This document shows, piece by piece, positions 1,001-57,794 of a stretch of 64,000 bases of DNA. The DNA is from Geosiphon pyriformis uo1 (taxonomy: Eukaryota; Fungi; Glomeromycota). Below the pieces are notes generated by a model that saw only the letters and a list, made by a program, of their open reading frames with translations, had not been told where the DNA came from and did no database searches. Location of the stretch: positions 477,380 to 541,379 of the forward strand of contig JAAOMT010000198.1 of NCBI GenBank assembly GCA_016748015.1. Reading direction: 5' to 3'. A program made the translations under genes and the position numbers. Each line of letters starts with the position of its first letter. Position 1 is the stretch's first letter.

Positions 1001-1118
1001 GTTTATGTAATGTTGCAGTTGTTGATATTTTTGTATGTTCATCTTTTGTTATATTTTTTGTTGGTATTGTTCTGGTTTTGTTATATTTTGGGTTGAAATG
1101 TTCTTAGATTTGTCTTAT

Positions 1119-2470: not shown

Positions 2471-2618
2471 TATGTTGTAGTGGGTCTAGATTTCCCATGT
2501 TCATTTGTTTTAATTGTTCTGGTTAAAGCAAATAACATTCGTCTTGTCCATAGATTGTTTGTGATGTGATGTCAACATATTCACAAAGCTGTGGAAAGTC
2601 TGGAATGGAGTTTGGTGG

Positions 2619-3680
2619 TTAATTTTCTATTTCAGTGTTTAAGTATCCCATGGTGGTTCTGGATGGTATTACTATAACATTTTTTGTGTTGTTGTAGATG
2701 GGAATTTTGATGTGGCTGTAATCTTTGGCTGGTATGTGGAGATTAATGAATCCAATCTCTCCTGATTCGCAAAGGGTCAGTTCTGTTTCAAAAATCTGAT
2801 TCTGTTCTTTTTCTTTCCTTTCTATTGCTAGCATGTACTGGCTATATAATAGAATAGAAATAGCTTGACTGGTTGAGATAATTTTTCCTTGGCCAACAAT
2901 TTCTTTCTCTGTCATATTAACTGGTACATCTATTCTACCCATTAATCCAAATCCTTGTATCCCTCTTGCTGTTATTCCTAATTCATTTCTTGTTTTTATT
3001 GACACTAAGCTAGCTACTTTGACTAGTGGCAGGAATATGGCCTGTGCTATCTTTTCATTTGGCTCAATAGTATAAGTTTTTTCTGAGTCATTTTGTAGCA
3101 TGGCACTGATATTTTCTGTATATCCTGCATCCACTATTCCCTCTCTAATATTAATTCCTTTTTTCACTAAACTACTCCTAAACACTAACAGAACCATGGT
3201 TGTTGCTGGGATCTCTAGAGCTATTCTCAGATTAATGCATACTTGTGCATTTGGCTCCAATTTGATGGCATTTTTTCCTGGATATTTCAGATCAAACCCT
3301 ACATCAGTATCATGTGCGCGTTCTGGCATAATACCTTTTCCATTGTCACTATACCATTTCAACTTCTGTTCCTTAGAGAAATCTGGTAGTGCAATATATT
3401 GTTCATAGTTTGTATCAGAGTTTGGATCCGAGTTGGAATCATTGTTGTTGTCATTGCCATGTTGAATAGAGCTGGAACTGGTGTTTTCGTCGTCATTCTT
3501 GTCAGAGTTTGAATTGGAATTGAAAATTGATTCCAATTTTGATGTGCAGCTGCTGATTGGTTCTTCTTCTTTGAAGATCATATAGATCATGCATGGTGGT
3601 GGATTGTAAATAAGGTTACAATCATCACAATATTCAAAGTCACTGAGAATTAAACAATGGCAACACAGTCTTGTATTCAA
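2619..3680 (-). pseudogene. Family B pol segment containing a trimeric dUTPase domain, preceded by a Cys cluster and N/D/S-rich linker and followed by a possible second degenerate dUTPase-like domain
   Basis: The five dUTPase motifs are recognisable though mutated: PERAHDTDVGFDL, RSSLVKKGI, GIVDAGYTENI, EKIAQAI, RGIQGFG. Confidence 0.85.
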
Positions 3681-4387
3681 CTGTGCTAGCCATTGTTCTT
3701 ACTTCTCTCTAGTGGGTGCCAAGTTTTGGTAGTGTTTATAGAACTCTTTTGGTTCTAAGAAATTTATGACTGGCTCTGCATTTCAGTCAAGCTTAATGGG
3801 TTCTGGTGGGTTGTTTTTGATTTTTCTGATCTCTTTGGGTGTTGCTCCTTCTATTTTGGCAATTGCCATTCTCCAAATTTTGTTGTCATCATGTGGACAA
3901 CTGCCCAGTTGCTGTACAGCTCTTCTCCAAGTGGCTTTTATTAACATCCCTTTTTGTACCCAGTTGCTAATAAGGATTGTGTATTAACATGATACATCGC
4001 ATGTTTCTCCATGTCTAGGAATGTCATTCCATATTCCTTCATTGAAGAGGGTCTTGCCACAGGCTAAACATGGTGTATTATTCCTTTTTCCCACTTGTCT
4101 TGGTCTTCCAAAACGCTCGACAAGGCATGCGCAGCAATAGAACTTGGTTGCCATCTGATATTCTTTGTTGTTGCCACAGCATGTGTCTATTGATGACAAT
4201 TTCTTGCCACAATTAATGCACACTAGTTTGGGTCAGCAATAGATGGATTGTTGTGATGTTGTGTGTTGATAGGAGGTATATGGGTTTGTTGGCAGTGGCT
4301 CTTTTTCTTTCACTTTTCCTTTCCCTTTGTTGCTTTTTTCCTATTTTTAGCTGGAAGTCAGTTTGCTCTCGTCATTGTCGGTCCATG

Positions 4388-5179
4388 TCAGGTCATTGGT
4401 TTCCCAGGTAAGTTTTTCCTTCTGTTTTTCTTTGTCATCTCATGATAGAATAGGTGGCAATTCGTTGTGGTTGTCATTGGTTCAAGAGATTTGGTACGCT
4501 TTTCAGGTAGGTTTTTTTTTTTCTCTTTCTGTTTGATTAATAGTTTCTCTCTTGGAGGAGTTTTGAAGTGGCCACACATGACTGGTACACGTATGTGTCG
4601 GCCCTGATATGTTAGCTGGAGTTCCTGGATGTTCCAGTCTAATGTCACGTTGACTTTGAACAGCCAGTCATTACCAACAAGGGCTTGGTATTGGGTGGCT
4701 TCTATTATTAAAACTTTAATGGGAGTTATGATACTGTTGACTTCGAAAGAGAAGTTGTCGATTTTGCTGATTGGAGTTTTGGTCACTTCATTAGCAGTGA
4801 TAATTCTGGCACTGGCAGCTTGGTCAACCCAGTAACCTAATTGGTCTATGAGTTGCCTGGTGATAATGCTGTCTGCTGACCCACTGTCAAGAATTAATTT
4901 GATGAATTGTTCATCGACTTTGGCATCAGTGTACATGGCAGTGATCAGTTTGGCTTCAAGAGTGACTCCACTAAATAGCGGTGTTGCAGTTGTCTCTTCA
5001 AATTCGAATGGGAAAATAGCAGCCATGAACTCGTCTTCAGTGATGGTAGCAGATGGGATATTACTGGTGAGTAGTTGTTTTTGGGCGGATTCTGGGTTAT
5101 TGGCTGAGACGTCTTCTAGAGTGATCAGAAGACTTAAATAGTTCTGGGAATTCGGGTTCTGGGGTTGATCGGTACCCAA
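4388..5179 (-). pseudogene. Family B aspartic protease
   Basis: KLILDSGSADSIIT active-site motif and ALVGNDWL. Confidence 0.88.
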
Positions 5180-5518
5180 ATTCTACTAGTATAATCCAGA
5201 TAGTTGCTGTGAAAAACTGAAGATTGGCTGATGGATTATCATTGCCGATCTCCAGCTCTGTTGAGCCATTCTCGGTCTTTGTGTTCCATTGGGTGGTAAG
5301 TTTTGGGGTGGTGTTTGAATTTATTGGGGTTGATAGATTGTTGGTGGCTGTGGTTGTTGATAAATTACTTGTGGCTGCAGTTAATAAATTTGAGGTTAAT
5401 ATACTGGTGGTTGATAAATTGGTGGCTGTGTTATTGGCAGATAAGTAGTTTGATCTTAATTTGGATAATGATTTGGAGTTTGAAATCTGCAATCGAGGTT
5501 TCAATATTGATTTTCCAA

Positions 5519-7330
5519 TCATGAATTGTTGCTATAAAATCTGCAGTCTGTTCTTATGTGTTCTTGTTTACCACAGTTGTGACAAACATGCATTTCTGGC
5601 TGCCACGGCTGATTAGGTGCTACTGATGATGATAATGAACGCAACTGATTTTGGAAATAATTTGCGTTTCTTGGATTATTGCATTGTTGTGGTGGTTGAT
5701 AAATTGTGTGATTGTCAGCTAAGTATCCCTCTAACTTTTGATTAATTGAATTACTAAATTGTTTCAATTTAGAATCCAATTCAGATGATCTATTCATCAC
5801 TAGATTCACAGCATGAGTGTGATTGGCTTCTAATTCAGCAGATTCAAAATCTCTGGCATGTGTGACTGCATCCTAGAGAGTGGCTGGATGCAATGGGCAT
5901 ATGTGTTGCAAGATGCTACTGTGCAGGCCATGGATGAATTGATTAAGAATTTGTGGCACTGTGAAATAATTAGCATCAATTGCTTGGATTTGTCACAAAT
6001 TTCTATGGAAGCATTTCAGATATGTAGTAATTGCTTCAGTTTCTTCTTGTTTAATTGTAGTGAAAGTGTTGACTAATCTGTTGATGCTGTTGTTATTGCT
6101 AAAGTATCTCAAAAATTCTAATTTGAAGATGTTGAAATCTTGGGGTTTGTCAATCAGGCTTTGATACCATGAATCTGCTGTATTCTTAAGAAAATAAGAT
6201 ATGGTTTGCATAACTCTGATGTCATTCCATCCATTGGTTGTAATGGCTTTTTTTACATTGTTTAGCCAAACTTGTGCATCGTTCTTTTTGCCAGTGAATT
6301 TGTTGAGCTTTGCGATTGGTGCATATGCCATTTGTTGTTGTTGCTGTGGTGGGAGTTGTTGTTGTTGTTGAGGTAATACTGGGGGTGGTTGTTGAGTTTG
6401 TTGGTTTGGTATTTAGATGGGCTGACCAATTGGTTCAACTGGTGGTTGATTGATGACAATAACTGGAGGTAAGTGTTGATTAATTATTTCAGGATTTTGA
6501 TTTTGCAGTGCTTGAATATTCAGAGTTTTGATTTCCAAATTTTCTCACTAAGTTTGAATGTTCAGGATCCCAAATTCCAGGTTTTTAAGGATTGGATTTT
6601 GGTAAATAAATTCTTGATTTTCTGATTTTTCTTCCTCTTCTTCTTCAGATAGTTTCCATGGGGTAGTGGTTCCAAAGTCTGGTTGAGATGGTGGTGATTG
6701 AATTCCTGATGGTGTTAGTGATCATGACTTAAATTTTTCAAAATATTTGCTATATGGTCCTAGTAGATCTGTTTTTCTTTGTTTACTTTGGAATGGGAAT
6801 TGTCTGAATGTTGATATCGCATTTGATGTGGACGTGCTTGCTGATGTTATATTGATGGTGCTTCTTGGTGTGTAGTAATAGGATGAAACAGTTGGTAATT
6901 CAACTCTTGTTTTCTTCCAAGTAGGTGGTTGTATCCTTTTGGGTGTTATCACTAATGTTTGTAGTTTTCCTTTGCCTTTACTGACGTAAGTAATTGGATA
7001 TCTTTGTTGGATATGATGTTCAATTTTTTTGTTGATTTCAGTGATAATAGATGCAAAATTATGATTTGTTGGTAGATTGGTGTTTTGAATTAATTCTCTA
7101 TAGAAAGTTTCTCTTGCTGATTCAGTATTCACTAGTGTTCCTAACAAAGAAGAAATCTTTTTGTTAACGTAGAAATTAAAGGCTGATTCAGCAAATATAT
7201 GATTGTGATTTAATTCCAAGTGTTGACAATAGTGTTAAAATAGGGATTTTGCGAATTCTAAATGATTTGCTCCTATGTTTTCTGATTCTGCCACTTTTGG
7301 ATGGTGTTTGTTGGTGCTGATTCTCTGAAA
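5519..7330 (-). pseudogene. Family B gag (fragmented)
   Basis: Capsid-like MAYAPIAKLNKFTG...DAQVWL (5993-6331), zinc knuckle CHNCGKQEHIRTDC (5519-5809) and N-terminal frame 6722-7219. Confidence 0.8.
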
Positions 7331-14503: not shown

Positions 14504-15253
14504 TGTTACGGGTTGGAATAACAAGCTAATAGATAGCAAGGGAGAACAGTATTGTATGATGATGAAAATAAACAAAGAGGGAATTACAATAAAGGAGCAA
14601 ATTGAATAAGTAGGAATTCAATGTGCGTGATCAGTCTCATAAAAATCACAGTTGCTAATCTTTTCTTAAATCTGAAGGTAGAGGAATAGTCCGTGATTGT
14701 CAATAAGATAACACCACTGCTATTATTCTATGCTTCAACTCGGCAATTCTTAGAATCAATAACAGGTATCATTGTACTTTTCAATCGTTTCTTTATTCAA
14801 TGAATTACAAGAGCAAGCCAATTGCTTCTCAGGCTATTTCTAACAAATACAAATCAAAAAGGGGAAAAGATAAGATATGTGAATGCCAACAAGTAGATAC
14901 TTGAAGGTAAGGAAAGGGGAATAAGTGATTATAAGAGGAAGTAATTGATATTGTTTATTTCATTACTTTGATCATGTCTTTCTACAGCTAAGGGAATCAT
15001 CGCTTATATAGCTATCTAAAGTAGTCAATAACTAGGTCAACAATCAGGTCAATGATCAGATCAATGATCAGGTCAATGATCAGGTCATTAATCAGGTTAT
15101 TGATCAGGTCAATGATCAGGTCAATGATCAGGTCAATGGTCAGGTTATTGATCAGGTCAACGATTACTATCTAAAAATAGGGTGGCTAATTATATGACAT
15201 CAGTGGCTAATACATGTGATAATTAATAAAAACTATGTGTTTTAACCATAACA
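14504..15253 (-). repeat. 3' LTR of A1
   Basis: TGTTACGGGTTGG...TTAACCATAACA, abutting the PPT (minus GGAGAGGATGA, 15254-15264); matches the sequence from 21561. Confidence 0.95.
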
Positions 15254-15969
15254 TCATCCTCTCCAAAGAGATTGAGCTTTGGCAAAATTAAACTATTTAT
15301 GGGATAGTCTATGTGAAGGGTTTTGTCTAACTCAAAACTAACTAGTTTGTTGAAGTCTTTTGTGGATAGAGTATCTTGAGGCAAAATAAACTTTGTATTC
15401 AAGAAACCAAATTTTTGTATAAAAGTTCTGGCTCTTTTAGCAATGGTCAAAACTCTTGGGACATCCAATCGTATAATGCCCAAAATTTCCACTTGTATCT
15501 CTGAAGTTGTTTTTTTCATGAGCTTCATGTCTTCTATGATTTCACCAAGATGACCATAGAGTTCTAGTTGTCTTCCATATGACAAATTTTTGTCTATGGG
15601 CAAGATTTTTTGTATTGTTTTTCCAATTGTGCTGGAAGATGAAAGTATTGCTGCTGTTATGCTTTCCAGCAGGTATTTATCCATTTTGCCACCAATTTTT
15701 TCTCTTCTGGTAGTTGTTTTTTTTGGTCTAATAACAGTATGAGTTCCACTGTTGTCTGTTATAGTGGTTTGTTTTCTGATAGTCAGAGTAGCATTTGGAT
15801 AGTTCTTGATCCAGTACTTATGGAGAGTATAGAAAGCGTTTTGAATGTTTTGATCCAGGAAATAATTGTTTATGTCAATTGAAAATACCTCTGTTTTGGG
15901 AATGGTGCATTTATTTATATCTAATTTTTGCTGATCATTTGGGTCAGTATTACCACAACAGATAACCAA
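15223..15969 (-). CDS. Family A ORF3 (unknown function), copy A1
   Basis: 248-codon open frame downstream of integrase, homologous to 27658-28314, with its stop inside the LTR. Confidence 0.7.
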   Translation of the reverse strand: MVICCGNTDPNDQQKLDINKCTIPKTEVFSIDINNYFLDQNIQNAFYTLHKYWIKNYPNATLTIRKQTTITDNSGTHTVIRPKKTTTRREKIGGKMDKYLLESITAAILSSSSTIGKTIQKILPIDKNLSYGRQLELYGHLGEIIEDMKLMKKTTSEIQVEILGIIRLDVPRVLTIAKRARTFIQKFGFLNTKFILPQDTLSTKDFNKLVSFELDKTLHIDYPINSLILPKLNLFGEDDVMVKTHSFY

Positions 15970-25784: not shown

Positions 25785-27657
25785 TAAAAGTGGTGCTTCC
25801 TGTAAGGTTGTCAAAATCCACTTTGTTTCCTATTGTATGGGTGATTATTCATATCTGTCACAACAATCAGAAGAACACTTTGAAGCATACAACAAAAACA
25901 ATCTAGACTTTATTGAACTCAATCCTTTGCTCTCCTGCTTGATTTGCTTCTCCATTGAAGAACAATTCAGCAGACAATTCCAAGACTTTTGAAACTGGTT
26001 TCTGAATGAGCATTCAGCTGAAATCTATACAGCTTATACAATCTATTACTTTGACCAAGCTTATTTTAAAGACAACTTTGAAGAAAGAAACAACAGTATT
26101 AATCAGCTCTTATATTCTACAATCTTTGAACAACAGCCCCCTGATTTCGAATATCTGAATCATTAAATCCACATTTGGATTGCTGCTCATCAATCAACTT
26201 AAATTTCTCTTGAAACAGAAGAAAAAAACTATCAAACTACTTCTGTTTTTGATATCTTTTTAAGTGAATCAGAACACTCCACACAAACAGTTACATCTGA
26301 ACCAATGGCTCAAGACCCTTTGTAACAAAATATTCTGATTGTCTTCCAAGATATACAAACTGCTTTAGGGCAAAGAAACAACACTCCATTACTATTATTC
26401 AGAGATGATGCCCATGATCCAATTGAATGGCTGAATGATTTTGAGAAAGCTGTTACAGCAAACCAATATGATAATGAATACAAGTTTTAAATCATTGGTG
26501 GCTATCTCCAAGGCTCTTCTGCTACTTGGTTCTTACAAGAAACCAATGCCAATGCTTAGCAAAAAATCATTAGATGGACACCAGTAAATGTTGGAGAAGA
26601 TAACATCTCTTTTACTACCCGGTTTGAAACAAAATTTAAAACTTCTATCTTGATATCCAAATGGCACATGGAATTGAAAAGAAGAACTCAAGGCTCTGGG
26701 GAGATTGTAATGGAATATGCCAAAGCAATAAGAAAACTCATTAAACAGGTAGACTTTGGAAAAAATTAGACAGAAGAGCAGAAAATACATTTCTTCACAA
26801 AAGAACTGAGAACTGATCTATCATATGCTTTTTGATCTCTTCTGGCCTTGAAAGATAATTCCACAATGGATATGGCTATTAAACTTGTCCAAAGAATAGA
26901 AGACAATTAAAGAATGCACCTAGAATCTACTCTTCTAGTTTTTGCTCCTGCCCCTGTCATGGTGTTATGGGTTGGAGTAACAAGCTAACAGATAGCAAGA
27001 GAGAACAGTATTGTATGGTAATGGAAATAAACAAAGAGGGAATTACAATAAGGGAGCAAATTAAATAAGTAGGAATTCAATGTGCATAATCAGTCTCATT
27101 AAAATCACAGTTGCTAATCTTTTCTTAAATCTGAAAGTAGAGGAATAGTCCGTGATTGTCAACAAGATAACACCGCTGCTATTATTCTATGCCTCAACTC
27201 GGCGATTCTTAGAATCAATAATAGGTATTGTTGTGCTTTTCAATCGTTTCTTTATTCAATAAATTACAAGAGCAAGCCAATTGCTTCTTAGGCTAATTCT
27301 AACAAATACAAATCAAGAAGGGAAAAAGATAAGGTATGTGAATGCCAACAAGTAGATACTTGAAGGTAAGGAAAGGGGAATAAGCGATTATGAGAGGAAG
27401 TAATTGATATTGTTTATTTCATTACTTTGATCATGTCTTTCTACAGCTAAGGGAATCATCACTTATATAGCTATCTAAAGTGGTCAACGACCAGGTCAAT
27501 AATCAGGTCAATGATCAAGTCAACAATCAAGTCATTGATCAGATCAATGATTAGGTCAATAATCAGGTCAACAGGCAGGTCATTGATCAGGTCAATAATC
27601 ACTATCTAAAAATAGGGTGGCTAATTATATGACATCAGTGGCTAATACATGTGATAA

Positions 27658-28314
27658 CTAATAAAAACTATGGGTTTCAACCATAACATCATCCTCTCCA
27701 AAAAGATTAAGCTCCAGCAAAATCAAGCTATTTATGGGATAGTCTATGTGAAGGGTTTTGTCTAACTCAAAACTAACTAGTTTGTTGAAGTCTTTTGTGA
27801 ATAGAGTATATAATACTTGAAGTGAAATAAGTTTTGTATCCAAGAGACCAAATCTTTGTATAAGAGTTCTGGCTCTTTTAGCAATGGTCAAAACTCTTGG
27901 GACATCCAATCGTATAATGCCCAAAATTTCCCCTTGTATCTCTGAAGTTGTTTTCTTCATGAGCTTTATGTCTTCTATGATTTCACTAAGACGACCATAG
28001 AGTTCTAGTTGTCTTCTATATGACAAGTTTTTGTCTATAGGCAAGATTTCTTGTATTGTTTTTCCAATTATGCTAGAAAGTGAAAGTATTGCTGCTGTTA
28101 TGCTTTCCAGCAGATATTTATCCATTTTGCCACCAATTCTTTCTCTTCTGGTAGTTGTTTTCTTTGGTCTGATAACAGTGTGAGTTCCACTGTTGTCTGT
28201 TATAGTTGTTTGTTTTCCGATAGTCAGAATAGCATTTGGATAGTTCTTGATCCAGTACTCATGGAGAGTATAGAAAGCGTTTTGAATGTTTTGATCCAGG
28301 AAATAATTGTTCAT
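27658..28314 (-). CDS. Family A ORF3 (unknown function), intact 218-aa copy in A2
   Basis: ATG start MNNYFLDQNIQ; uninterrupted; homologues at the same position in all copies whose 3' end is visible. Confidence 0.75.
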   Translation of the reverse strand: MNNYFLDQNIQNAFYTLHEYWIKNYPNAILTIGKQTTITDNSGTHTVIRPKKTTTRRERIGGKMDKYLLESITAAILSLSSIIGKTIQEILPIDKNLSYRRQLELYGRLSEIIEDIKLMKKTTSEIQGEILGIIRLDVPRVLTIAKRARTLIQRFGLLDTKLISLQVLYTLFTKDFNKLVSFELDKTLHIDYPINSLILLELNLFGEDDVMVETHSFY

Positions 28315-28359
28315 GTCAATTGAAGATATCTCTGTTTTGGGAATGGTGCATTTATTTAT

Positions 28360-31300
28360 ATCTGATTTTTGCTAATCATTTGGGTCAGTATTACCACAAC
28401 AGGTAACCAATTAGATTGTTTGTGATATTTCTTGAGTCGTGTGCCATGAACAGGGCAATCACTGAATTTTGTTCCATATTGATCTTGTAGGATATATGAA
28501 CCATTGTTCAAAACTTTGTTGACTATAAAAGGTCTTTTCTAGTGGCTGGAAAATTTATCACCATAGACATTGTCTCTGTCTGAACAGTATTCCAAAACTA
28601 AGTCACTAACACTTAAGGAAAGTGTTTTATAGGTTTTTTTCTTTTTAAGCTTCTCTTGGAACTGTTTTATCTTTTCAAAGGCAATTATCCGTGCTTCTAC
28701 CAATGAGTCAAGAATAGTACCAAGTCTTCTTTGCAAAATGTCCTTGTAATCTCCTATTGTTATTTCTTCAAAAGATATTGTTTCTATATTTGTTTTTATT
28801 GGTAGAGTTGCCATTTATCCATAGAGTAGATAAAAGGGTTCATAACTTGTTATGTCATGATTCACAGTTCTGTAGGCGAACAAAGCTGAAGGCAATACTT
28901 TGTTTCATAAGTTGGTTTCTTCACTGGTTTTGGCTAGGGTTTCACATAGTGTTCTATTGAAACGTTCTACTAGGCCATTTGTTTGGGGGTGATAAGGGGA
29001 AGAGAGTTTATGACATATTCCCATTTTTCTGCAAAGTTCTTTAACCAGTGTACTGAGAAAAGCTCTTCCTCTGTCAGATAAAAGTTCTTTGGGGCAGCCG
29101 TGACAACAGATAATATCTTCATAAATGAAATTGGCAATTGAGACTGCTGTTTGATCTGGGGTGGCTCTTGCTTCTACCCACTTTGTAAGATAGTCGGTAA
29201 CTGTGATAATGTATCTATTGCCATCAGGAGTTACTGTTAAAGGTCCAACAACATCTATACCAATTCTATCAAATGGTTGACCAACAGAGATTGGATGGAT
29301 ATCTTCCTTGTGATTGGGTTTTCCTCTTCTTTGGCAGGTATCACAGGTTTTGATGTATTCAGCAATGTCTTTTCCCAAGGTAGGCCAATAATAGCGAGCT
29401 AAAGTTTCTGAATCATTTTTGTTTTTCCAAAGTGTCCAGCTAATGGATCAGTGTGCATATTGTAGATCACAATTTTTCTTTCTTCAAATCTAATGACTCT
29501 CTGGAGGTGGTCAAGATCTTTTTTATTTCTTTTATATAACTGGTTCTGGCGAATCAAATAGAAATTTGATTGTTTGTGCAAATGTTCTCTTTGCTGTTAA
29601 GTATAGTCCAGCGGGTATTGTTCTTTACCCAAAAATTCCATTAAGGCAGAGTGGTTGTCCAAGTTCATTATCGTGTTTGTTTGTAGGGAAGTTACAAATA
29701 ATAAGGTTGGTTTGGTTTAAGAGAGTTTTGCTATTACTGAATGGTAAGTCTGGAAAGAGTATTGGCATTTTGATGATTAGCTTCTTTGCGGTGTTGAATG
29801 TCATAGTCAAATTCATCTAAGTAGAGTATCCAGCAAGTTATCCGTTTATGTTCCAGGTTTCTTTTGTTGCATAGCCAAACCAAAGCTTGATGATCTGTTA
29901 CCACCAAAAATTTTACACCTTTGAGATATTTGTCCCAGTAGTTGATAGCCCAAACTACTGCTAAGCATTCTTGCTTAGTGACTGAGTAGTTCTTTTCTGC
30001 TGGTGTGAGAGTTCTACTGGCATATGCTACAGCATGTTCCTTGCCATTTTCGTCTTTCTGAGAAAGAACAGCACCAAGTCCATAGCCAGATGCATCAGTG
30101 TGGAGGATAAAAGATTGATCCAAATTAGGTTGCATGAGGATGGGTTCTGTAACCAGTTTTTCCTTCAGAATTTCAAATGCTTTTTGTTAATGAGTGTCTC
30201 AGTGATAATTGATGTTTTTTCTAAGTAGCTGATTGAAAGGAGCGGCAATTTTGAAGAAATCCTTGACAAACTTGCGATAATAAGAAGCCAAATTAAGAAA
30301 AGAGTGTAGTTCATGAACATTCATTGGTTGTCTAATGTTTTGAACTTTTTCAATTTTGGCTGGATCAGAGAAGATTCCATCTTTTGTAATAAGATGGCCA
30401 AGGAACTGGGTAGATTGACGTCCAAAGAATGATTTGATTGGATTGATCTTGAGACCAGCATTTCTAAGGAGGTCAAAAACTTTTTGCAAATGTTCAAGGT
30501 GTTCATCCCAGGTTTTTGAGTATACCATTATGTCGTCCAAGTAGACTAGAACAAAGTTTTCTTTTACTGATTCAAATACTTTGTCCATTAAGCATTGAAA
30601 GATGGGAGGGGCATTTGTGAGACCAAAAGACATGACTGTGAATTTGTAGGTGTCATACTTGGTGATGAAGACAGTTTTCTTTCTGCTTTCTGTATCCATC
30701 TCTACTTGCCAGAATCCAGCAGTTAAGTCAATGGTTGAAAAAAAAGCGGCACCATGGAATTGGTCTAGCATTGCATCAATTTTGGGAAGTGGGTACATGT
30801 CTCTTTCAGTAATGGCATTTAATTGGTGATAGTCAACACAAAAGCGTAGAGTTCCTTCTTTTTTGGATACCACTACAACTGGGAATGCCCATTCACTCTT
30901 GGTTTCCTGTATGAATCCAAGGGTTTTCATTCGGGTTATTTCCTTTTTAATAAACTCATCATTGTGCCGGTTGGATTGATAGGGCTTCAAATGGATGGGG
31001 CGAGTTTCTCTAGTGATGATGGTGTGTTGTATCACATGTGTATGTCCAGGAGGTTCACCTTCTTTTGAGACAACTGGGCTGTTTCTAGCCAGCAGGTTTT
31101 CAATGTCTATCTTTCTTTCTTCTGGAGAGAGTTCTTTTTGTTCTACAACCAGTGATTGAATTTCAGGTGGTTTGTTTTCAAAGGACTTTTGGACTTCTTT
31201 TATTTCCTCATGGGGTATTAAGCTGATTGGTTCCCAATCTTTGTAATAGATCAGGCAAGACATGCATTCATCACTAGGAGAATACAATGGTTTGTCACAC

Positions 31301-32427
31301 CAGCACCGGACACAAAGACCATGCCACCAATAACTGTATTTGGCTTTCTTGTCTGGCTTTCTGTCAAAAGTTCTTCTAAGCATGTCATAATAAGACCAGC
31401 AGATTAGCTTGCCATTGACAATGATTCTTTCTTTATCTGCCTTGACATTATCCAGTAGTTTGCCATTGCTGGTGAAGATGGTATAGGCGAGTTCAGCAGT
31501 TTCTTCTTGTTCTTCTTGTTCTTTTTCTTTCTCACTTTCTTCATCATCTGATTCATCTGATTCATTTTCTTCTGGGCTCTGCTTAGATACTGGGGGAGTT
31601 GTCCAATGGTGACATTTAACCACAATGGGTTTCTTACCACATCTGATGGTTAGTTCACAGGGTTCATAATCAAGCAAAGCTTTTGCTTTCTTGAGCCATT
31701 CATTGCCAACAATGATAGTGTATTCTTTCACTTCAGATACTTCCATATCAGTTTCAATACTAATGCCATTGATGCGGACAGGAATAGCTTTGGCTATGCC
31801 AAGCCCTTTCTTCTTATCACCATGTACATTGATCATTAGTCATGTGGATGATTCATCAATTTTTCTGCCAATTGCTTCAAGAAAGTGTTTAGCAATAACA
31901 CTAACAGATAATCCACTGTTTAGGATCAAATCGATGAAGTAGCCAGCCACTTGGGCTTTGCAAATTAGAGGAGTAATATTGCTATTGTCAGCAAGTCCAG
32001 CTTGGTAAGGGCGTTTGTTGGTTTTGGGTGTCTTTTTCTTTAGAATCAAAGATTTGCGAAGATCTTTTCTGAATTGTGGATGGGTCATCAATTGGCCAAA
32101 GATTATATATGCTGGGGTTTCCATGAGGTCTTTGACAACAGAATAGGGGCTGGATTTTTGTACTATTTCTGGGGGTTCCAACTTTGGAGGGTTTTTAAAA
32201 ACTTTGGCTTTTGGGGGCTCATTGTTGTCAACAGTTGATGTAGAAGCTTTATTGGAGTCCAGAACGAAATCAACTTTGGCTTTCTTCTTCTTTCTTGTGG
32301 ATTCAGAGGGGTTGATTGCTAATTCATCTATGTCATGGTTATCATCATTTAAGTTAAAAGCGTAAAAAAAGTTTTTTTTTGGTTGGCTTGCACTTTCATC
32401 CTTTGGAGGTGCACCTACCAGTTTAAA
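28360..32427 (-). pseudogene. A2 pol (PR-RT-RNaseH-IN), few disruptions
   Basis: ORFs 31840-32181, 30199-31836 (VYLDDIMVYS), 29734-30135, 28905-29378 (GIDVVGP, LSDRG, GLVERFNRTL). Confidence 0.94.
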
Positions 32428-33497
32428 GGCTGATAAACAGTGGCTTCAACTAGGGGATCCTCTCCAAAGAAATTGATGTTGGCATAATTGGTTTTTTGGT
32501 TGGGCACATTGTTGTTGTTAGGTCTGTTGTTCTGAGCATCATTGTTTCTGGAAACTAGTGAAGGCAGTGGAGGATTGTTGCAATCTCTTGAAAAGTGTCC
32601 AGTTAATCCACAGCGATAGCATACAGGTGGGCCACAATTTTGTTGTCTTTGATAAGATAATTGCTGGGGCTGATTGAAGCATGGTTCAAATCTGGGTCTT
32701 TGTGGTTGTTAATTTTTTCTGACTGCTTGGGCTAAGAGTTCTAATAACTGGGCAAGATTTGCTGTAAGTCTGTCTATTAACTGTTCATTTGGGTCTTGAG
32801 TATGAGTGGCAAAAGAAGTAGCAGCCATTTGAGGGGCAGGAGCCATGACAGGAGCAGGAGCAAAAACTGGTAGTGTGGATCCCAAGTGCATTCTTTGGTT
32901 ATCTTCAATTCTTTGTGCTAATTCAATGGCCATATCCATGGTGGGATTATCTTTCAGGGCCAGGAGGAGCCAAAGAGCATATGATAGATCAGTTCTCAAT
33001 CCTTTTGTGAAGGAGTGAATTTTCTGCTCTTCTGTCCAATTTCTCCCAGAGTCTACACGTTTGATTAGCTTTTTAATAACCTTGGCATATTCAGTCACTA
33101 CTTCTCCAGGACCTTGGGTTCTTCTTTCCAATTCAATGTGCCATTTGGATATTAATATTGGAGTTCTGAACTTGGCCTTAAATCGGGTAGTGGAAGAGGT
33201 ATTTTCTTCTCCAGCATTGATTGGTGTCCATCTGATTATTCTGTGTTGAGCATTGGCATCTGTTTCTTGTGAGAACCAGGTAGCAGGAGAGTCTTGGAGG
33301 TAGCCACCAATGATTTGGAACTTGTATTCTTCATCATACTGGTTGGCTGTGGCAGCTCTCTCAAAATCATCCAACCATTCAATTGGATCTTGTGCATCAC
33401 TTCTAAATAGTGGTAGTGGAGTATTGTTTCTTCTTCCTAGAGCAGTTTGTATACCTTGGAGGGTGGCCAGAATGTTTGCTTGCATGGGGTCATTAGC
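32415..33497 (-). pseudogene. A2 gag (5' part lost in gap 33498-33906)
   Basis: 258-aa ORF 32709-33485 (DPIEWLDDFERAA; QGPGEVVTEY); CYRCGLTGHFSRDC at ~32579-32620. Confidence 0.9.
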
Positions 33498-33906
33498 NNN
33501 NNNNNNNNNNNNNNNNNNNNNNNNNNNNNNNNNNNNNNNNNNNNNNNNNNNNNNNNNNNNNNNNNNNNNNNNNNNNNNNNNNNNNNNNNNNNNNNNNNNN
33601 NNNNNNNNNNNNNNNNNNNNNNNNNNNNNNNNNNNNNNNNNNNNNNNNNNNNNNNNNNNNNNNNNNNNNNNNNNNNNNNNNNNNNNNNNNNNNNNNNNNN
33701 NNNNNNNNNNNNNNNNNNNNNNNNNNNNNNNNNNNNNNNNNNNNNNNNNNNNNNNNNNNNNNNNNNNNNNNNNNNNNNNNNNNNNNNNNNNNNNNNNNNN
33801 NNNNNNNNNNNNNNNNNNNNNNNNNNNNNNNNNNNNNNNNNNNNNNNNNNNNNNNNNNNNNNNNNNNNNNNNNNNNNNNNNNNNNNNNNNNNNNNNNNNN
33901 NNNNNN
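33498..33906. other. Assembly gap (N run)
   Basis: Run of N, shorter than the gag start, PBS and LTR sequence it should contain. Confidence 1.
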
Positions 33907-36639
33907 AGGAATAGTCCGTGATTGTCAACAAGATAACACCACTGCTATTATTCTATGCCTCAACTCAGCGATTCTTAGAATCAATAACAGGTATTATTGT
34001 GCTTTTCAATCATTTCTTTATTCAATGAATTACAAGAGCAAGCCAATTGCTTCTCAGGCTAATTCTAACAAATACAAATCAAGAAGGGAAAAAGATAAGG
34101 TATGTGAATGCCAACAAGTAGATACTTGAAGGTAAGGAAAGGGGAATAAGCAATTATGAGAAGAAGTAATTGATATTGTTTATTTTGTTACTTTGATCAT
34201 GTCTTTCTACAGCTAAGGGAATTATCACTTATATAGCTATCTAAAGTGGTCAACGACCAGGTTAATGATCAGGTCAATGATCAGGTCAACAATCAGGTCA
34301 ACAATCAGGTCAACAATCAGGTCATTGATCAGGTCAATGATCAGGTCAATGGTCAGGTCATTGATCAGGTCAACAATCACTATCTAAAAATAGGGTGGCT
34401 AATTATATGACATCAGTGGCTAATACATGTGATAACTAATAAAAACTATGGGTTTCAACTGTAACAATGGTTTCAGCTCCACAAATAGCAGCTATTTCTT
34501 TTGCCATTCACACTCAAGATCCCAATAAACAATTAATAAACAGACTTACTGCTAACTTTGCTCAGCTATTAAAATCATTAGCCCAAGCAGTCAAAGACAA
34601 CCAGCAACTCCAAAGACCCAGATTTGAACTCTGCTTCAATCAGCCCCAACAACCACCATATTAAAGACAACAAAATCATAGCCCACTTATGTGCTATCAC
34701 TGTAAACTAACTGGACACTTTTTCAGAGACTGCAACAATCTTCTATTGCTCTCTCCAGCTCCTAGAAATAATGACACCCAGAATAACAGACCCAACAATA
34801 ATAATGTTCCCAATCAAAGACTCAATTATGCCAACATCAATTTCTTTGGAGAGGATCCTTTAGTTGAAGCTACTGTTTATCAGCCTTTAAACTGGTAAGC
34901 ACACTTCCAAAGAGTGAGAATGCAAGCCAACCAGAAGAAAACCTCTTTTATGTCTTTAACCTAACTAATAATAACTATAATATAAATAAACTGGCAATCA
35001 ATACATCTGACTTAACAAAAAAAAAGAAGAAAGCCAAGATTGATTTTGTTCTAGATTCCAACAAAGTCTCAACTTCCACTGCTGACAACAATAAGCCACT
35101 AAAGGCTAAAGTTTTTAAAAATTCTCCAAAGTTGAAATTTCCAGAAATAGTACAAAAATTCGGCCCCTATTCTGTTGTTAAAGATCTTATGGAAACCCCA
35201 GCACACATTACATTTGGCCAACTAATGACTCATCTACAGTTCAGAAAAGATTTTCACAAATTATTAATACTAAAAAAAAAGACACCAAAAACCAATAAGC
35301 ATTCTCGCCAAGCTGGACTTGCTGACAACAGCAATGTTACTCCTCTGATTTGCAAAGCCCAAGTGACTGGCTACTTTATCAATTTGATTCTAGACAGTAG
35401 ATTATCTGTTAGTGTAATTGCCAAACACTTTCTGGAAGCCATTGGAAGAAAGATTGATGAACCTTCCACCTAGCCTATGACCAATGTACATGGTGACAAA
35501 AAAAAAATCTGGGTATAGCCAAAGCTATTTCTGTTTACATCAATGGTATCAGCATTGAAACAGGCATGGAAGTATCTGAAGCAAAAGAGTACACCATAAT
35601 TGTTGGCAACAAGTGGTTTAAGAAAGCCAAAGCACTACTTGACTATGAACTTTGTGAGCTAACAATCAGATATGGTGAGAAACCCATTGTGGTTAAATGC
35701 CATCATTGAACAACTCCTCCAGTAACCAAACAGAACCAAAAAGAAGAACAATCAGATGAATCAGATAATAATGAGAGCGATGATGAAAAAGATCAAAAAG
35801 AACAAAAAGAAACTGCTGAACTTGTTTATACTATCGTTACTAGCAATGGCAAGTCATTAGACAATATTAAAGCAGATAAAAAAGGAATTATAGTAAATGG
35901 CAAGCTGATTTGCTGGTCTTACTATGATATTATTACAGTTGAAACCCATAATTTTTATTAGTTATCACATGTATTAGTCACTTATGTCATATAATTAGCC
36001 ACTCTATTTTTAGATAGTGATTATTGACCTGATTAATGACCTGACTGTTGACCTGGTCATTGACCACTTTCAATAGCTATATAAGCAATGAGTCTCTTAG
36101 CTGTAGAAAATCATCTCTCAGACAAGAATCAAATAAATAAAAATAACAACTTTCATCTCAATCACTTTCTTATCACTAATTTCCCTTTCCCTACCTTCAA
36201 GTATCTGAACATCTTAGAATAAAAGATTACTTGTTGGTCTTTTCCTGTTTGAATAATTGTAGTATTTGAAGACTATTTGTATAAATGTGACTGAAAAGCA
36301 CAAGTTGATACCTGATATTGAATTCTAAGAGCACCAACATGAAGGCATAGAATTAATACCAGCAGTAATCAATTGTTGACAGTATGGACTATCCTTCTAC
36401 CTTCAGATTCTCTTGTTACCTTTTGAAAAGAATAGCGACTGAGATATTTTATGAAACTGATCTTGCACATTGAATCCATACTCATTCAATTCACTCTTTA
36501 AAGTTGAATTTCCCTTTGATTATTTCCATCACCCTACAATTCTGTTCTCCCTTGCTATCTGTTAGCTTGTTACTCCAACCCATAACATAAAAGTGGTGCT
36601 CCCTGTGAGGTTGTCAAAATTCACTTATTCCCTCATTGT

Positions 36640-42278: not shown

Positions 42279-42868
42279 ATGAACAATTATTTCCTAGATC
42301 AAAACATTCAAAACACTTTCTATACTCTCCATGAGTACTGAATCAAAAATTATTCAAATGCTACTCTGACCATTGGAAAACAAACCACCATAACTGATAA
42401 CAGTGGAACACATACTGTTATTAGACCAAAGAAAACCACTACCAGAAGAGAAAAAATTGGTAACAAAATAGATAAGTATTTGCTGGAAAGTATAACAGCA
42501 GCAATACTTACACCTTCCATGACAATTGGAAAAATGATTAAGGAAATCTTGCCCATAGACAAAAACTTGTCATATGGAAATCATAGAAGAAATAAAGCTT
42601 ATGAAGAAAACAACTTCAGAGATACAAGTGAAAATTTTGGGCATTATACATTTAGATGTACTCTTATACAAAGATTTGGTCTCTTGGATACAAAGCTTAT
42701 TTTGCCTCAAGTACTATACACTCTATCCACAAAAGACTTCAACAAACTAGTTAGTTTTGAGTTAGACAAAACCCTTCAATTAGAATCCCTATAAATAGCT
42801 TGATTTCGCCAGAGCTCAATCTCTTTGGAGAGGATGATGTTACAGTTGAAACCCATAATTTTTATTAG
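42279..42868 (+). pseudogene. A3 ORF3, disrupted
   Basis: Homologous to 27658-28314, with stops and deletions. Confidence 0.8.
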
Positions 42869-43068: not shown

Positions 43069-46000
43069 ACTTTCAATAGCTATATAAGCAATGAGTCTCT
43101 TAGCTGTAGAAAATCATCTCTTAGACAAGAATCAAATAAATAAAAATAACAACTTTCATCTCAATCACTCTCTTATCACTAATTTCCCTTTCCCTACCTT
43201 CAAGTATCTGAACATCTTAGGATAAAAGATTACTTGTTGGTCTTTTCTTGTTTGAATAATTGTAGTATTTGAAAACTATTTGTATAAACATGACTGAAGA
43301 GCACAAGTTGATACTTGATATTGAATTCTAAGAGCACCAACGTGAAGGCATAGAATTAATACCAGCAGTGATCAATTGTTGACAGTACGGACTATCCCTC
43401 TACTTTCAGATTCCCCAGTTACCTTTGAAAAGAATAGTGACTGAGATATTTTATAAGACTGATTTTGCACATTGAATCCATACTTATTCAATTCACTCTT
43501 TAAAGTTGAATTCTCCTTTGATTATTTCCATTACCCTACAATCCTGTTCTCTCTTGCTATCTGTTAGCTTGTTACTCCAACCTGTAACAATATTCTCAGA
43601 AGAACTTTTGACAAAAAGCCTGGCAAGAAAGCCAAATACAGCTATTGGTGGCATGGTCTTTGTGCCAGGTACTGGTGTGATAAACCTTTGTATTCTTCTA
43701 GTGATAAATGCAAGTCCTGTCTAATCTATTACAAAGATTGGGAGCCAATTAGTTTGATACCCAAAAAAGAACTAAAAGAAGTATAAAAGTCCTTTGAGAG
43801 TAAACCATCTGAAATCCAATTACTAGTTGTAGAACAAAAAAAACCTTCCCTTAAAGAAAGAAAAATGAACATTGAAAATCTGTTGGCTAGAAATAATCCA
43901 GTTATTTTAAAAGAAGGTGACACTCCTGAATGAACCCATGTGATACAACACACCATTACCACCAAAGAAACTCACCCCATTCATTTGAAGCCTTATCAAT
44001 CTAATCGATGTAATGATAAGTTTATTAAGAAAGAGATAAACTAGATGAAAGATCTTGGATTTATACAAAAAACCAAGAGTAAATGGGCTTTCCCAGTTAT
44101 AATAGTGTTATGGTTGAGACCTATACTTCTTATTAATTATCACATATATTAGCCACTAATGTCATATGATTAGCCATACTATTTTTAGAAAATGATCATT
44201 GACCTGATCAATGATCTGACCATTGACCTGACTGTTGATCTGATCAATGACCTGATTAATGACCTGATCATTGATCTGATCATTGACCTGATCATTGACC
44301 ACTTTTGATAGCTATATAAGCAATGAATCTCTTAGCTGTAGAAAAGCATGTAATAACAAGCATCTGAATAATCAAGAATAAATAAAATAACAACTTTCAT
44401 CTCAATTCTTCTCTTATCGCTAATTTTCCTTTCTCTACCTTTAAGTATCTGAACATCTTAAAGATAAAAGATTACTTGTTGGCCTTTTCTTGATGTATAT
44501 AATTGTAGCATTTGAAGATTATTTGAATAAACATAACTGAAAAGCATAAGTTGATACCTGATATTGAATTCTAAGAGCACTGACATGAGGCATAGAATTA
44601 TACCAGTGGTGATCAATTGTTGACAGTACGGACTATCCCTCTACCTTCAGATTCCCCAGTTACCTTTAAAAAGAATAGCGACTGAGATATTTTATGAGAC
44701 TGATCTCACACATTGAATCCATACTCATTCAATTTGCTCTTTAAAGTTGAATTCCCCTTTGATTATTTCCATCACCCTACAATCCTGTTCTCCCTTGCTA
44801 TCTGTTAGCTTGTTACTTCAACCCATAACATAAAAGTGGTGCTTCCTGTGAGGTTGTCAAAATTCACTTATTTTCTCATTGTATGGGTGATTATTCATAC
44901 TTGCCACAGCAATCAGAAGAACACTTTGCAGCACACAACAGAAATGACCTAGAGTTTATTGAACTCAATCTTTTGCCCTCCTGCTTGATCTGTTTCTCTG
45001 TTGAAGAACAATCCAGTAGACAATTTCAAGACTTTTGGAACTGGTTCCTGAACGAGCATTCAGCTGAAACCTACACAGCTTATACTATCTATTACTTTGA
45101 TCAAGCTTATTTTGAAGACAATTTTGAAGAAAAAAATACCAGCATCAATCAGCTCTTATACTCCACAACCTTTGAACAACAGCCCCCTAATTTCGAATAT
45201 TTGAATCACCAAATCCATATTTGGATTGCTGCTCACCAACTAGTTGAAAACTCCTTTGAAACAGAAGAAGAAAGTTACCAAACTGCTCCTATTTTTGATA
45301 TTTTCTCAAGTAAATCAGAGCACTCTACACAAACAGTAACTCCTGAACCAATGGCCCAAGATCCAATGCAAGCAAACATTTTGGCTGCCCTCCAAGGTAT
45401 ACAAACTGCCTTGGGGTGAAAAAACAACACTCCACTACCATTATTCAGAGGTGATGCACAAGATCCAATTGAATGGTTGGATGATTTTGAAAGAGCTGCT
45501 ACNNNNNNNNNNNNNNNNNNNNTACTATCTATTACTTTGATCAAGCTTATTTTGAAGACAATTTTGAAGAAAAAAATACCAGCATCAATCAGCTCTTATA
45601 CTCCACAACCTTTGAACAACAGCCCCCTAATTTCGAATATTTGAATCACCAAATCCATATTTGGATTGCTGCTCACCAACTAGTTGAAAACTCCTTTGAA
45701 ACAGAAGAAGAAAGTTACCAAACTGCTCCTATTTTTGATATTTTCTCAAGTAAATCAGAGCACTCTACACAAACAGTAACTCCTGAACCAATGGCCCAAG
45801 ATCCAATGCAAGCAAACATTTTGGCTGCCCTCCAAGGTATACAAACTGCCTTGGGGTGAAAAAACAACACTCCACTACCATTATTCAGAGGTGATGCACA
45901 AGATCCAATTGAATGGTTGGATGATTTTGAAAGAGCTGCTACAGCCAACCAATATGATGATGAGTACAAGTTTCAAATTGTTGGTGGCTACCTCCAAGGC

Positions 46001-50391: not shown

Positions 50392-50987
50392 ATGAACAAT
50401 TATTTTCTGGATCAAAACATTCAAAACACTTTCTATACTCTTTATGAGTATTGGATTAAAAACTATTCAAATGCTACTCTGACCATTGGAAAACAAACTA
50501 CAATAACTGACAACAGTGGAACACATACTGTTATCAGACCAAAGAAAACAACTACCAGAAGAGAAAAAATTGGTAGCAAAATAGATAAGTATTTGCTGGA
50601 AAGTATAACAGCAGCAATACTTGCACCTTCCATCACAATTGGAAAAACAATTAAAGAAATCTTGCCCATAGACAAAAACTTGTCATATGGAAGACAACTT
50701 CTGAGATACAAGTGGAAATTTTGGACATTGTACGATTATATGTCCCAAGAATTTTGACCATTGCAAGAAGAGCCAAAACTCTTATACAAAGATTTGGTCT
50801 CTTGGACACAAAGCTCATTTTGCCTCAAGTTTTATATACCTTATCCACAAAAGACTTCAACAAACTAGTTAGTTTTGAGTTAGATAAAACCCTTCAAATA
50901 GAGTATCCCCTAAATAGTTTGATTTCACTGGAGCTCAATTTCTTTGGAGAGGATGATATTATAGTTGAGACCTATACTTCTTATTAA
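50392..50987 (+). pseudogene. A5 ORF3, frameshifted by internal deletion
   Basis: ORFs 50296-50757 and 50712-50987. Confidence 0.8.
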
Positions 50988-51673: not shown

Positions 51674-54600
51674 TATCCAAGAAAAGTGGAACCCTATGCT
51701 TCTGTGTTGACTACTGCCAATTAAATGCCATCACTATAAGAGACATATACCCACTCTCCAAAATTGATGCAATGCTAAATAAATTCAATGGTGCTGCTTT
51801 CTTTTCAACTATTGACTTAACTGCTGGATTCTGGCAAGTAGAGATAAATCCAGAACGCAGAAAAAAAACTGCTTTCATCACCAAGTATGGCACCTATGAA
51901 TTTACAGTTATGTATTTTGGTCTCATCAATGCTCCTCTTATCTTTCAACACATAATAGATAAAGTGTTTGAATTAGTAAAAAAAAACTTTGTTCTGGTTT
52001 ACTCAGATGACATAATGGTATATTCAAAAACCTGGGATGAATACCTTAAACATTTACAGAAGGTTTTTGACCTGCTCAGAAATACTGGCCTTAAGATCAA
52101 CCCAATCAAATCTTTCTTTAGACACCAATCCACCTAGTTCTTTAGTCATCTTATTACAAAAGATGGAATCTTCCCTGATTCAGCTAAAGTTGAAAAAGTT
52201 CAAAACATTAGACAACCAATGAATGTTTCTGAACTACACTTTTTTCTTGGTTTGGTCTCTTACTATCACAAATTTATTAAGGGTTTCTCCAAAATTGTCT
52301 TTCCTCTTAATTAACTACTCAAAAAAAATGTCAATTATTACTGGGGCACTTATCAACAAAAAGCTTTTGAAATTTTGAAGGAAAAACTTGTTACTGAACC
52401 AATTCTCAAGCAACCTGATCTGGACCAACTTTTTATCCTCTACACTGATGCATTTGGCTATAGACTTGGTGCTGTCCTTTCACAGAAAGATGAAAATAGC
52501 AGAGAACATGCCATAGCATATGCCAGTAGATCCTTCACACCAGCAGAAAAGAACTATTCAGTTACTGAACAAGAATGTTTAGCAGTAGTTTGGGCTACTA
52601 GTTACTGAGATTAATATCTTCTTGGTGCAAAATTTTTAGTGGTAACAGATCATCAAGTCTTGGTTTGGCTGCATAAGAAAAAGAAGTTGGAACACAAATG
52701 AATAACTCGCTGGATACTCCACTTGGATGAATTCAACTATGATATTCAATACCACAAAGGAGCAAATTATCAAAATGCTAACACTCTATTTAGACTTACC
52801 ATCCAGTGACAGTACAATCTCTCAAACCAAACCAACCTAATTATTAGTAACTTCTTTATAAACAAACATGATAATGGACTTGGACAACTACTCTGTCTTA
52901 ATAGAATTTTTGGGTAAAGGACAATACCCACCTGAATACACTCAACAGCAAAGAAAACATTTGTGCAAACAATCAAATTTTTATTTGATCCACTAGAATC
53001 AATTATACAAAAGAAACAGAAAAGATCCTGACCACCCCCAAAGAGTCATCAGATTTGAAGAAAGAGAAATTGTAATATACAACATGCACACTGACCCATT
53101 AGCTGGACACTTTGGAAAAACAAAGACAATTCAGAAAACTTTAGCTCACTATTATTGGCCTACTTTGGGAAAAGACATTGCTGAATACATCAAAACTTGT
53201 GACATTTGTCAAAGAAGAAGCAAATCTAATCACAAAGAAGATATCCATCCAATCTCTATTGGTCAACCATTTGACAAAATTGGTATAGATGTTGTTGGAT
53301 CTTTAACAATCACTCCTGATGGCAACAGATATATTATCACAGCTATTGACTATCTTACAAAGTGGGTAGAAGCAAAAGCCATCCCAGACCAAACAGCAGT
53401 CTCAATAGCCAATTTCATTTATGAAGATATTATCTGCCACCATGGCTGCCCCAAAGAACTTTTATCTGATAGAGGAAGAGCTTTTCTCAGTATACTGGTT
53501 GAAGAACTTTGTAGAAAAATGGGAATACATTATAAACTTTCTTCCCCTTATCACTCCCAAACAAATGGCCTAGTGAAACATTTTAATAGAACATTATGTA
53601 AAACTCTAGCCAAAACCAGTGAAGAAACAAACTTATGAAACAAAGTACTGCCTTCAGCTTTGTTTGTTTATAGAACTGTGAATTATGACATAACAAGTTA
53701 TGACCATTTTTTATCTGCTCTATGGATGCATGGCAACACTACCAATAGAAACTGACATTGAAACAATACTCTTTGAAGAGATCACAATAGGAAATTACAA
53801 AGACATTTTGCAAAGAAGACTTGGTACCATTCTTGACTCTTTGGTAGAAGCATGAATAATTGCTTTTGAAAAGATAAAACAGTTCCAAGAAAAGCTTAAG
53901 AAAAAGAAAACCTATAAAACACTTTCTTTAAGTGTTGGTAACTTGGTATTGAAATACCATTCAGATAGAGACAATGGTTCTTATATTCTTCAAGATTAAT
54001 CTGGAACAATCTTTAATGATCATCCTGTTTATGATACACAACTCAAGAAATATTATAAACGACCTGATTGGCTGCCTGTTGTGGTAATACTAACTCAAAT
54101 GATCAGCAAAAATCAAGTATAAATAAATACACCATTCCCAAAACAGAGATATCTTTAATCGACATGAACAATTATTTTCTGGATCAAAACATTCAAAACG
54201 TCTTCTATACTCTTCATGAGTATTGGATCAAAAACTATCCAAATGCTATTCTGACCATTGGAAAACAAACTACCATAACTGATAACAGTAGAACACATAC
54301 TGTTATTAGATCAAAGAAAACCACTACCAAAATAAAAAGAATTGGTAGTAAAATGGATAAATATTTGTTGGAAAGTATAACAGCAGTTATACTCCTACCT
54401 TCCAGCACAATTAGAAAAACACTCCAAGAAATCTTACTCATAGACAAAAACTTGTCAAAGATACAGGCAGAAATTTTTGGGCATTATATGGTTAAATGTC
54501 TTAAGAGTTTTAACTATTGCTAAAAGAGCCAAAACTCTAATACAAAGATTTGGTCTCTTGGATACAAAACTCATTTTGTCTCAAGTGTTATATACCTTAT

Positions 54601-54723
54601 CCACAAAAAACTTCAACAAACTAATTAGCTTTGAGTTAGATAAAACCCTTCAAATAGATTACCTCATGAATAGCTATATTTTGCCAGAGCTCAATCTCTT
54701 TAAAGAGAATGATGTTATGGTTG
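51674..54723 (+). pseudogene. A4 RT-RNaseH-IN and ORF3 (3' portion of host element)
   Basis: Resumes VSKKSGTLCFCVDY after the A5 TSD; integrase 53084-53638; ORF3 from 54164; PPT and LTR start at 54713. Confidence 0.9.
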
Positions 54724-57156: not shown

Positions 57157-57159
57157 TGA

Positions 57160-57790
57160 TGTTATGGTTGAAACTTATACTTCTTATTAATTATCACATG
57201 TATTAGCCACTGATGTCACATAAATTAGCCATTCTATTTTTAGTAAGTGATCAATGACCACTTTTGATAGCTATATAAATAATGAATCTTTTAGCTGTAG
57301 AAAAACATGAAGAAATCAAGAAAATAAAATAAATAAAATAACAACTTTCATCTCCATCATTCTCTTATTGCTAATTTCTCTTTTCCTATCTTCAAGTATC
57401 TGAACATCTTGGGATAAAAAATCACTTGTTGGTTATTCCTTACTTTTTTCCTGAAACATGTAATCGCAGCATTTAAAGATTATTGAATAAAATGTGACTA
57501 AAGAGTACATCTGATACCTAATATTGAATTCTAAGAGCACTAACATGAGGCATAGAATTATACCAGGCATGATCATTTGTTGACAGTATGAACTATCCCT
57601 CTACCTTCAGATTCTCCAGTTATCCTTTGAAAAGTATAATGACTGAGATATTTTATGAGACTGATCTTGCACATTGAATCCATACTTATTCAATTCACTC
57701 CTTAAAGTTGAATTCCCTTTGATTATTTCTATCATCCTACAATTATGTTTTCCTTTGCTATCCGTTAGCTTGTTACTCCAACCCATAACA
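57160..57790 (+). repeat. 3' LTR of A4 (first 11 nt also at 54713-54723 because of the D1 TSD)
   Basis: TGTTATGGTTG...CCCATAACA followed by ATAT and no PBS. Confidence 0.9.
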
Positions 57791-57794
57791 ATAT

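Follow-up and report, generated by a model that had tools for sequence, protein, structure and literature searches.

Lentiviral nef overlaps the polypurine tract (PPT) and the U3 region of the long terminal repeat (LTR), and foamy viruses carry a 3′-end accessory open reading frame (ORF), Tas/Bel, of which Tas transactivates its LTR. Among LTR retrotransposons, extra ORFs in the slot after pol have been reported from plants (PMC7264820), rotifers (PMC5408684) and some fungi (Boty brtn; PMC2774666), and the VANC proteins are described as transposon-encoded anti-silencing factors whose targets form tandem repeats (PMC5735166). Here we analyzed a stretch of 64,000 nucleotides from the fungus Geosiphon pyriformis uo1 (contig JAAOMT010000198.1, positions 477,380 to 541,379; hereafter the window), in which the copies of a Ty3/gypsy LTR retrotransposon carry such an ORF, designated ORF3, downstream of integrase. 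ORF3 is an accessory gene under purifying selection in its own frame, and is almost certainly a real protein gene encoded by the element. Additional post-pol ORFs are a known kind, and the protein family of ORF3 appears to be undescribed; its product is likely soluble and regulatory and would serve to keep the element active.

The window consists of nested, decayed copies of a single LTR retrotransposon family, which have inserted into one another. In the copy termed A2, gag is followed by a pol ordered protease (PR)-reverse transcriptase (RT)-RNaseH-integrase (IN). ORF3 and its remnants are located as follows.

28314-27658, minus strand: ORF3 in copy A2, 218 amino acids (aa), intact
27689..27699, minus strand: PPT, translated in frame as part of ORF3
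15223-15873, minus strand: ORF3 copy A1, frame open, ATG changed to ATA, 6-nt deletion
42279-42868, plus strand: ORF3 copy B1, deletions and one stop
50392-50987, plus strand: ORF3 copy B2, frameshifting deletion
54164-54723, plus strand: ORF3 copy C, deletion, frameshift, 3′ end truncated
57792-58149, minus strand: ORF3 copy D, 5′ fragment with deletions

The first-pass annotation of this DNA had placed an ORF after integrase, in the env position, in six copies, and ORF3-homologous sequence was indeed found in all six window copies that reach the region, although it is intact in only one of them (A2). The accompanying description of A2 as intact and A1 as open is correct, except that A1 has lost its start codon and 6 nt. 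The ATG of ORF3 lies 41 nt past the pol stop codon (28358-28356), so that ORF3 proper does not overlap pol. ORF3 then crosses the PPT in frame, and its last nine codons and stop (31 nt, against about 30 nt estimated previously) lie inside U3 of the 3′ LTR; the term nef-like, applied to it earlier, fits this layout but nothing beyond it. The plus strand opposite ORF3 of A2 is crowded with stops.

For the analysis of selection, all window copies were projected on A2 and changes were counted codon by codon; as each codon is covered by no more than four to six copies, the pN/pS values are rough. Because post-insertion decay consists mostly of C>T and G>A changes, transversions and changes common to at least two copies were taken as the best reporters of selection on active lineages. 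In ORF3, pN/pS was 0.25 for transversions (16 synonymous, 22 nonsynonymous; p 6e-5) and 0.28 for shared transitions (25 synonymous, 14 nonsynonymous; p 8e-5), and private transitions were near neutral (0.79), as expected for changes after insertion. The transversion ratio was 2.4-4.4 in the two other sense frames of ORF3 and 1.0-1.8 in the LTR control. Of the antisense frames, only the mirror frame, whose third positions coincide with those of ORF3, echoed the signal (0.48), and it did so over integrase as well (0.51). The ratios for gag and pol were 0.09-0.17, compared with 0.25 for ORF3. It had been proposed in advance that a dN/dS near 1 would speak against an accessory protein; among the window copies, pN/pS is well below 1. 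Stops in ORF3 across the copies numbered one against 5.2 expected (P 0.035), but since four of the six copies carry deletions, post-insertion selection is not claimed from this deficit.

When 1.84 billion representatives were searched with a profile, 28 proteins were obtained, five of which are distant, unnamed and metagenomic (E 6e-20 to 1e-4). With their cluster members, the distant homologues show 25-37% identity to ORF3. In their alignment with ORF3 (A7), six of eight distant rows have the aligned Met as their first residue, and the remaining two have short extensions that contain it. At their ends, the three full-length distant rows, from two clusters, carry the acidic peptide that is encoded here by the PPT and the start of the LTR, which suggests that the distant homologues occupy the same slot. 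Cys is not conserved across the homologues, and the basic patch RPKKTTTRREK, to which weight had been given initially, is replaced in every distant homologue covering it and is no longer regarded as a feature of weight. All named database proteins among the best 120 of 130 matches were G. pyriformis hypothetical proteins with 60-93% identity, as were ten of the ten longer database matches, and the databases hold many intact 218-aa copies of ORF3.

Upstream of the ATG, 29 codons in the ORF3 frame showed no selection (shared transitions, 3 synonymous and 10 nonsynonymous; transversions, 0 and 3), and this frame is interrupted by TAG in A2. The overlap with pol in the -1 frame claimed by the first-pass annotation is not supported, with the relatives beginning at the same Met. 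A fusion of ORF3 to integrase by -1 frameshifting was considered and rejected on the codon counts and the alignment.

Among 28 database copies, ORF3 proteins have 0-1 Cys, a pI of 8.4-10.1 and a best 19-residue hydropathy of 1.1-1.8; the N-terminus is polar. A low-confidence model predicts a helix plus strands for residues 1-50 and a helical region for residues ~78-190. ORF3 generated no significant match in Pfam, PHROGs, NCBIfam, PDB sequences or phage tblastn, and no confident match to any described accessory or Env family was obtained in the libraries searched, which agrees with the earlier proposal of an undescribed family. No description of ORF3 or its family was found in the literature, though subscription papers, supplements and transposable element (TE) libraries could hold one. 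ORF3 lies on the sense strand between pol and the 3′ LTR, the position of env. Hydropathy alone revealed no signal peptide or transmembrane (TM) anchor in the 28 copies, and no homology to a viral fusion glycoprotein was found in the Pfam and PDB sequence searches and the distant-homologue alignment. With no TM-type hydrophobic segment and no conserved Cys, ORF3 is not a classical Env, as had been stated.

The AF2 model of ORF3 (pLDDT 40) gave an empty and uninformative Foldseek search, and the Atlas model of the homologue P0203 (pLDDT 0.60) was used as a structure proxy. Residues ~55/78-190 of this model align to two ParB-containing clusters with subthreshold TM scores by query of 0.39 and 0.38, one of these clusters being 32% HTH_ParB, and the model also aligns, below the bar of the service, to three unnamed phage or Bacillota clusters. 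These alignments may point to a helical DNA-binding protein, an idea formed before the P0203 result was obtained. Alignment A7 compared with 18 DUF3102 (PF11300) sequences gave a score of 17.9, above 60 of 60 column shuffles, yet the hhalign probability was 1.2%, and ORF3 had no direct Pfam match to DUF3102.

An integrase scan returned 80 metagenomic loci, 33 of which extend 120 nt or more beyond the integrase stop. In 21 of the 33, the integrase stop leads directly to the PPT with no ORF between, and the remaining 12 are organized otherwise. Two of the 12, soil loci L004 and L006 (integrase 43-44% identical), carry an intact ORF of ~150 aa ending just before the PPT, and these ORFs define a family termed A6.

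L004, 5190-5636, sense: A6 ORF between integrase and PPT
L006, 1378-1845, sense: A6 ORF between integrase and PPT

The two ORFs show 43% identity to each other, and the family has 25 matches, one of them a fragment in Diversispora epigaea. The A6 model is confident (pLDDT 89.6) and all alpha. It had no fold match in PDB or BFVD, and Foldseek/VIA and PDB sequences gave no usable match, an absence that does not establish a new fold; the best Pfam hit, RAD51D_N (E 0.002, 9 of 26 members), was likewise not usable. In the models, the helix spacing of A6 resembles that of the predicted helices of ORF3 residues 99-180. Direct comparison of ORF3 with A6 gave an hhalign probability of 3-6% and a score of 23.5, above 60 of 60 shuffles, with 17.0 for the reversed sequence; the best HMM score, 7.9 bits, was matched by 14 of 5628 control sequences, shuffled or reversed. 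Kinship between ORF3 and A6 is no more than suggestive. Five of the six Atlas feature clusters displayed for P0203 were also displayed for P0134. When the ORF3 and A6 alignments were used for DNA-pattern scans of viral, metagenome and prokaryote contigs, no locus emerged.

Short sense ORFs, some of them broken, also follow integrase in three other soil lineages (L016 1725-2003, L036 and L049; L038 from 1215; L047). Their residue pattern looks similar, and no statistical link to ORF3 was found; downstream arrays with 10-bp units occur in L038/L040 and with 15-bp units in L049. In L031, L041 and L054, the same slot holds long Env-like ORFs with signal and TM-like segments, and the hosts of these loci are probably animals.

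A tandem array in the LTR offers a candidate target for an ORF3 protein.

27482..27601, no strand assigned: 12-bp tandem array of ~10 copies within U3, 56 nt downstream of the ORF3 stop; the unit includes a TGATCA palindrome; candidate binding site

Nine 12-bp arrays of 4-11 copies are present in the LTRs of the window, and every long LTR has one. Across lineages of integrase-related soil elements, arrays of at least seven copies occur in three of four that have a post-integrase ORF, including the Geosiphon lineage, versus none of three without it (Fisher p ~0.11). The CpG observed/expected ratio in the copies is 0.13, and the C>T rate is 0.30 at CpG versus 0.10-0.12 elsewhere. In the related Rhizophagus, TEs are reported to be CG-methylated, and targeted by small RNAs, and gypsy elements to give rise to small RNAs (PMC8647823).

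We tentatively propose that the ORF3 product is a DNA-binding regulator that acts on the 12-bp array of its own LTR and keeps the element transcribed against host methylation. Its expression would rely on a spliced RNA, on a subgenomic one or on reinitiation, the ATG lying 41 nt past the pol stop. The protein, with a putative helix-turn-helix-like C-terminal domain, would act in the nucleus and bind the array, and once bound might transactivate the LTR or counter silencing. All lines of support for DNA binding are weak. The top Atlas structure row for P0203 is a fungal SET-domain cluster (TM 0.49), with no family in the aligned part. The ParB HTH profile matched ORF3 at chance level, and the DUF1016_N (YhcG) profile gave a probability of <1% with 2 of 60 shuffles scoring equally high; moreover, DUF3102, ParB HTH and YhcG-N had been chosen for profile comparison by eye. 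The lineages are also too few for the co-occurrence of array and ORF to reach significance. A wider version is conceivable but rather doubtful: gypsy elements of the arbuscular-mycorrhizal type would share an ORF3 family that is old and exchangeable, consists of helical DNA-binding proteins and co-evolves with the tandem arrays of their own LTRs as a sequence-specific anti-silencing or transactivation system, a VANC-like device that would have helped one family to fill much of the Geosiphon genome.

It is unlikely that ORF3 is instead a chromatin-tethering or integration-targeting factor that replaces a chromodomain and steers insertion into heterochromatin or other copies. As noted in the first-pass annotation, the integrase has no visible chromodomain: no chromo family was detected in the integrase pieces scanned or in gene models containing the integrase C-terminus, in contrast to most of the fungal gypsy elements surveyed, which have one (PMC3248453). 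The nesting of the window copies inside each other, the SET-domain row for P0203 and a weak TAF6 histone-fold row (E 0.41) would also suit such a role. However, the 21 of 33 related soil loci without any such ORF argue against it, as do a conserved Pro-containing break that interrupts the would-be long histone-fold helix and the lack of fusion between ORF3 and integrase.

A function on RNA or particles, as an RNA interference (RNAi) suppressor, RNA export factor or Gag chaperone akin to retroviral accessory factors, is similarly improbable. A small, basic (pI ~9) and soluble protein would be compatible with it, as would the gypsy small RNAs reported in Rhizophagus (PMC8647823) and the closterovirus coat and phage translation-repressor clusters among the Atlas feature matches (0.87-0.94); those matches, however, have few features in common (111-146 of 256) and turn up with either query, which may mark them as hub clusters, and no match to RNA-binding families was obtained.

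It is very unlikely that ORF3 serves spread, whether as a strongly diverged Env, as a fusogen or in another way. It does occupy the env slot, and a quick integrase tree places the Geosiphon branch near L031, L041 and L054, the loci with Env-like ORFs, at 89% SH-aLRT. This branch is long and its placement unsure, and ORF3 lacks a signal peptide, a TM segment and conserved Cys. Finally, the notion that ORF3 is a by-product, either uncoded spacer or an unselected captured fragment, is hardly credible and largely refuted, for although five of the six window copies are broken and private transitions are near neutral, purifying selection is frame-specific, homologues of 25-37% identity share the start, and intact 218-aa copies are many.

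The other features of A2 are given below.

26963..27688, minus strand: 3′ LTR, 726 bp, TG...CA, terminal inverted repeat
33907..34466, minus strand: 5′ LTR, 3′ part hidden in an N gap, 92.9% identity with the 3′ LTR
26959-26962 and 34467-34470: 4-bp target duplication
28356..32445, minus strand: pol, broken by stops
32709..33490, minus strand: gag (Retrotrans_gag), start masked by the N gap 33498-33906

The LTR edges at 26963 and 27688 were set by loose ends of public contigs. Both A2 LTRs start with TG, and the CA end is visible on the 3′ LTR. As the LTR pairs in the window are only 91-93% identical, the window copies are old. Sequences resembling a primer-binding site, starting with TGG six bases past the 5′ LTR end, occur at 36587-36610, 44831-44855 and 62147-62170. 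The spacer between PR and RT (~31250-31320, minus strand) contains an acidic run and a Cys/Trp-rich stretch with four Cys in two pairs plus one, possibly a zinc-binding insert, that has no match in Pfam; selection on the PR-spacer region is strong (transversion pN/pS 0.09).

Other sequences in the window include a different gypsy-like element at 275-5900 on the minus strand, with a dUTPase (2619-3698, E 1e-18) and an aspartic protease (4388-5182). Within 45083-45942, a 420-bp stretch is duplicated at 100% identity around a 20-N gap (45503-45522), which is likely an assembly artefact. Another decayed repeated element at 54726-61421 comprises a pair of ~2.4 kb (54726-57156 and 58155-60497, 79% identity) and holds a CCHC zinc knuckle ORF at 54858-55757.

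The few known accessory genes of retrotransposons gain an apparently undescribed protein family with ORF3, and possibly a second one with A6. LTR sequence is reported to make up 41.2% of the G. pyriformis genome (PMC11952901), and how one LTR family outran host silencing there becomes approachable through a selected ORF3 beside a candidate array. For annotation, well over 100 proteins listed as hypothetical in Geosiphon derive from this transposon ORF, as copies or as chimeras, and are not host genes.

Compared with the additional ORFs in the same slot of other LTR retrotransposons, ORF3 is alike in orientation, in presence across the family (six of six copies) with conservation comparable to that of gag-pol, and in its unclear function, but differs in lacking a TM segment, in running through the PPT into U3 and in its fungal host, and has no sequence match to them. 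Foamy virus Tas/Bel and lentiviral nef resemble it in their 3′-end position, but belong to vertebrate retroviruses with env and show no homology. The non-envelope ORF3s of bdelloid rotifers (GDSL, DEDDy, coiled-coil, TM) are described as family-specific modules that related elements have acquired or lost, a pattern also seen among the soil relatives here; those match known enzymes or have TM segments, whereas the Geosiphon ORF3 matches none (PMC5408684). Boty/BcGypsy1 of Botrytis is likewise a fungal gypsy element with an additional post-pol ORF, brtn (PMC7264820; bioRxiv 2021.04.13.439636); brtn differs in being antisense. VANC comes from a plant DNA transposon and has a MAIN-related fold (PMC5735166; PMC13547354); it has no sequence match with ORF3, whose binding is a proposal. 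The likeness to VANC of the VANDAL elements lies in the proposed mode only, that of a protein acting on its own tandem-repeat targets (PMC5735166; PMC13547354), for which the 12-bp arrays provide candidates within the Geosiphon element itself.
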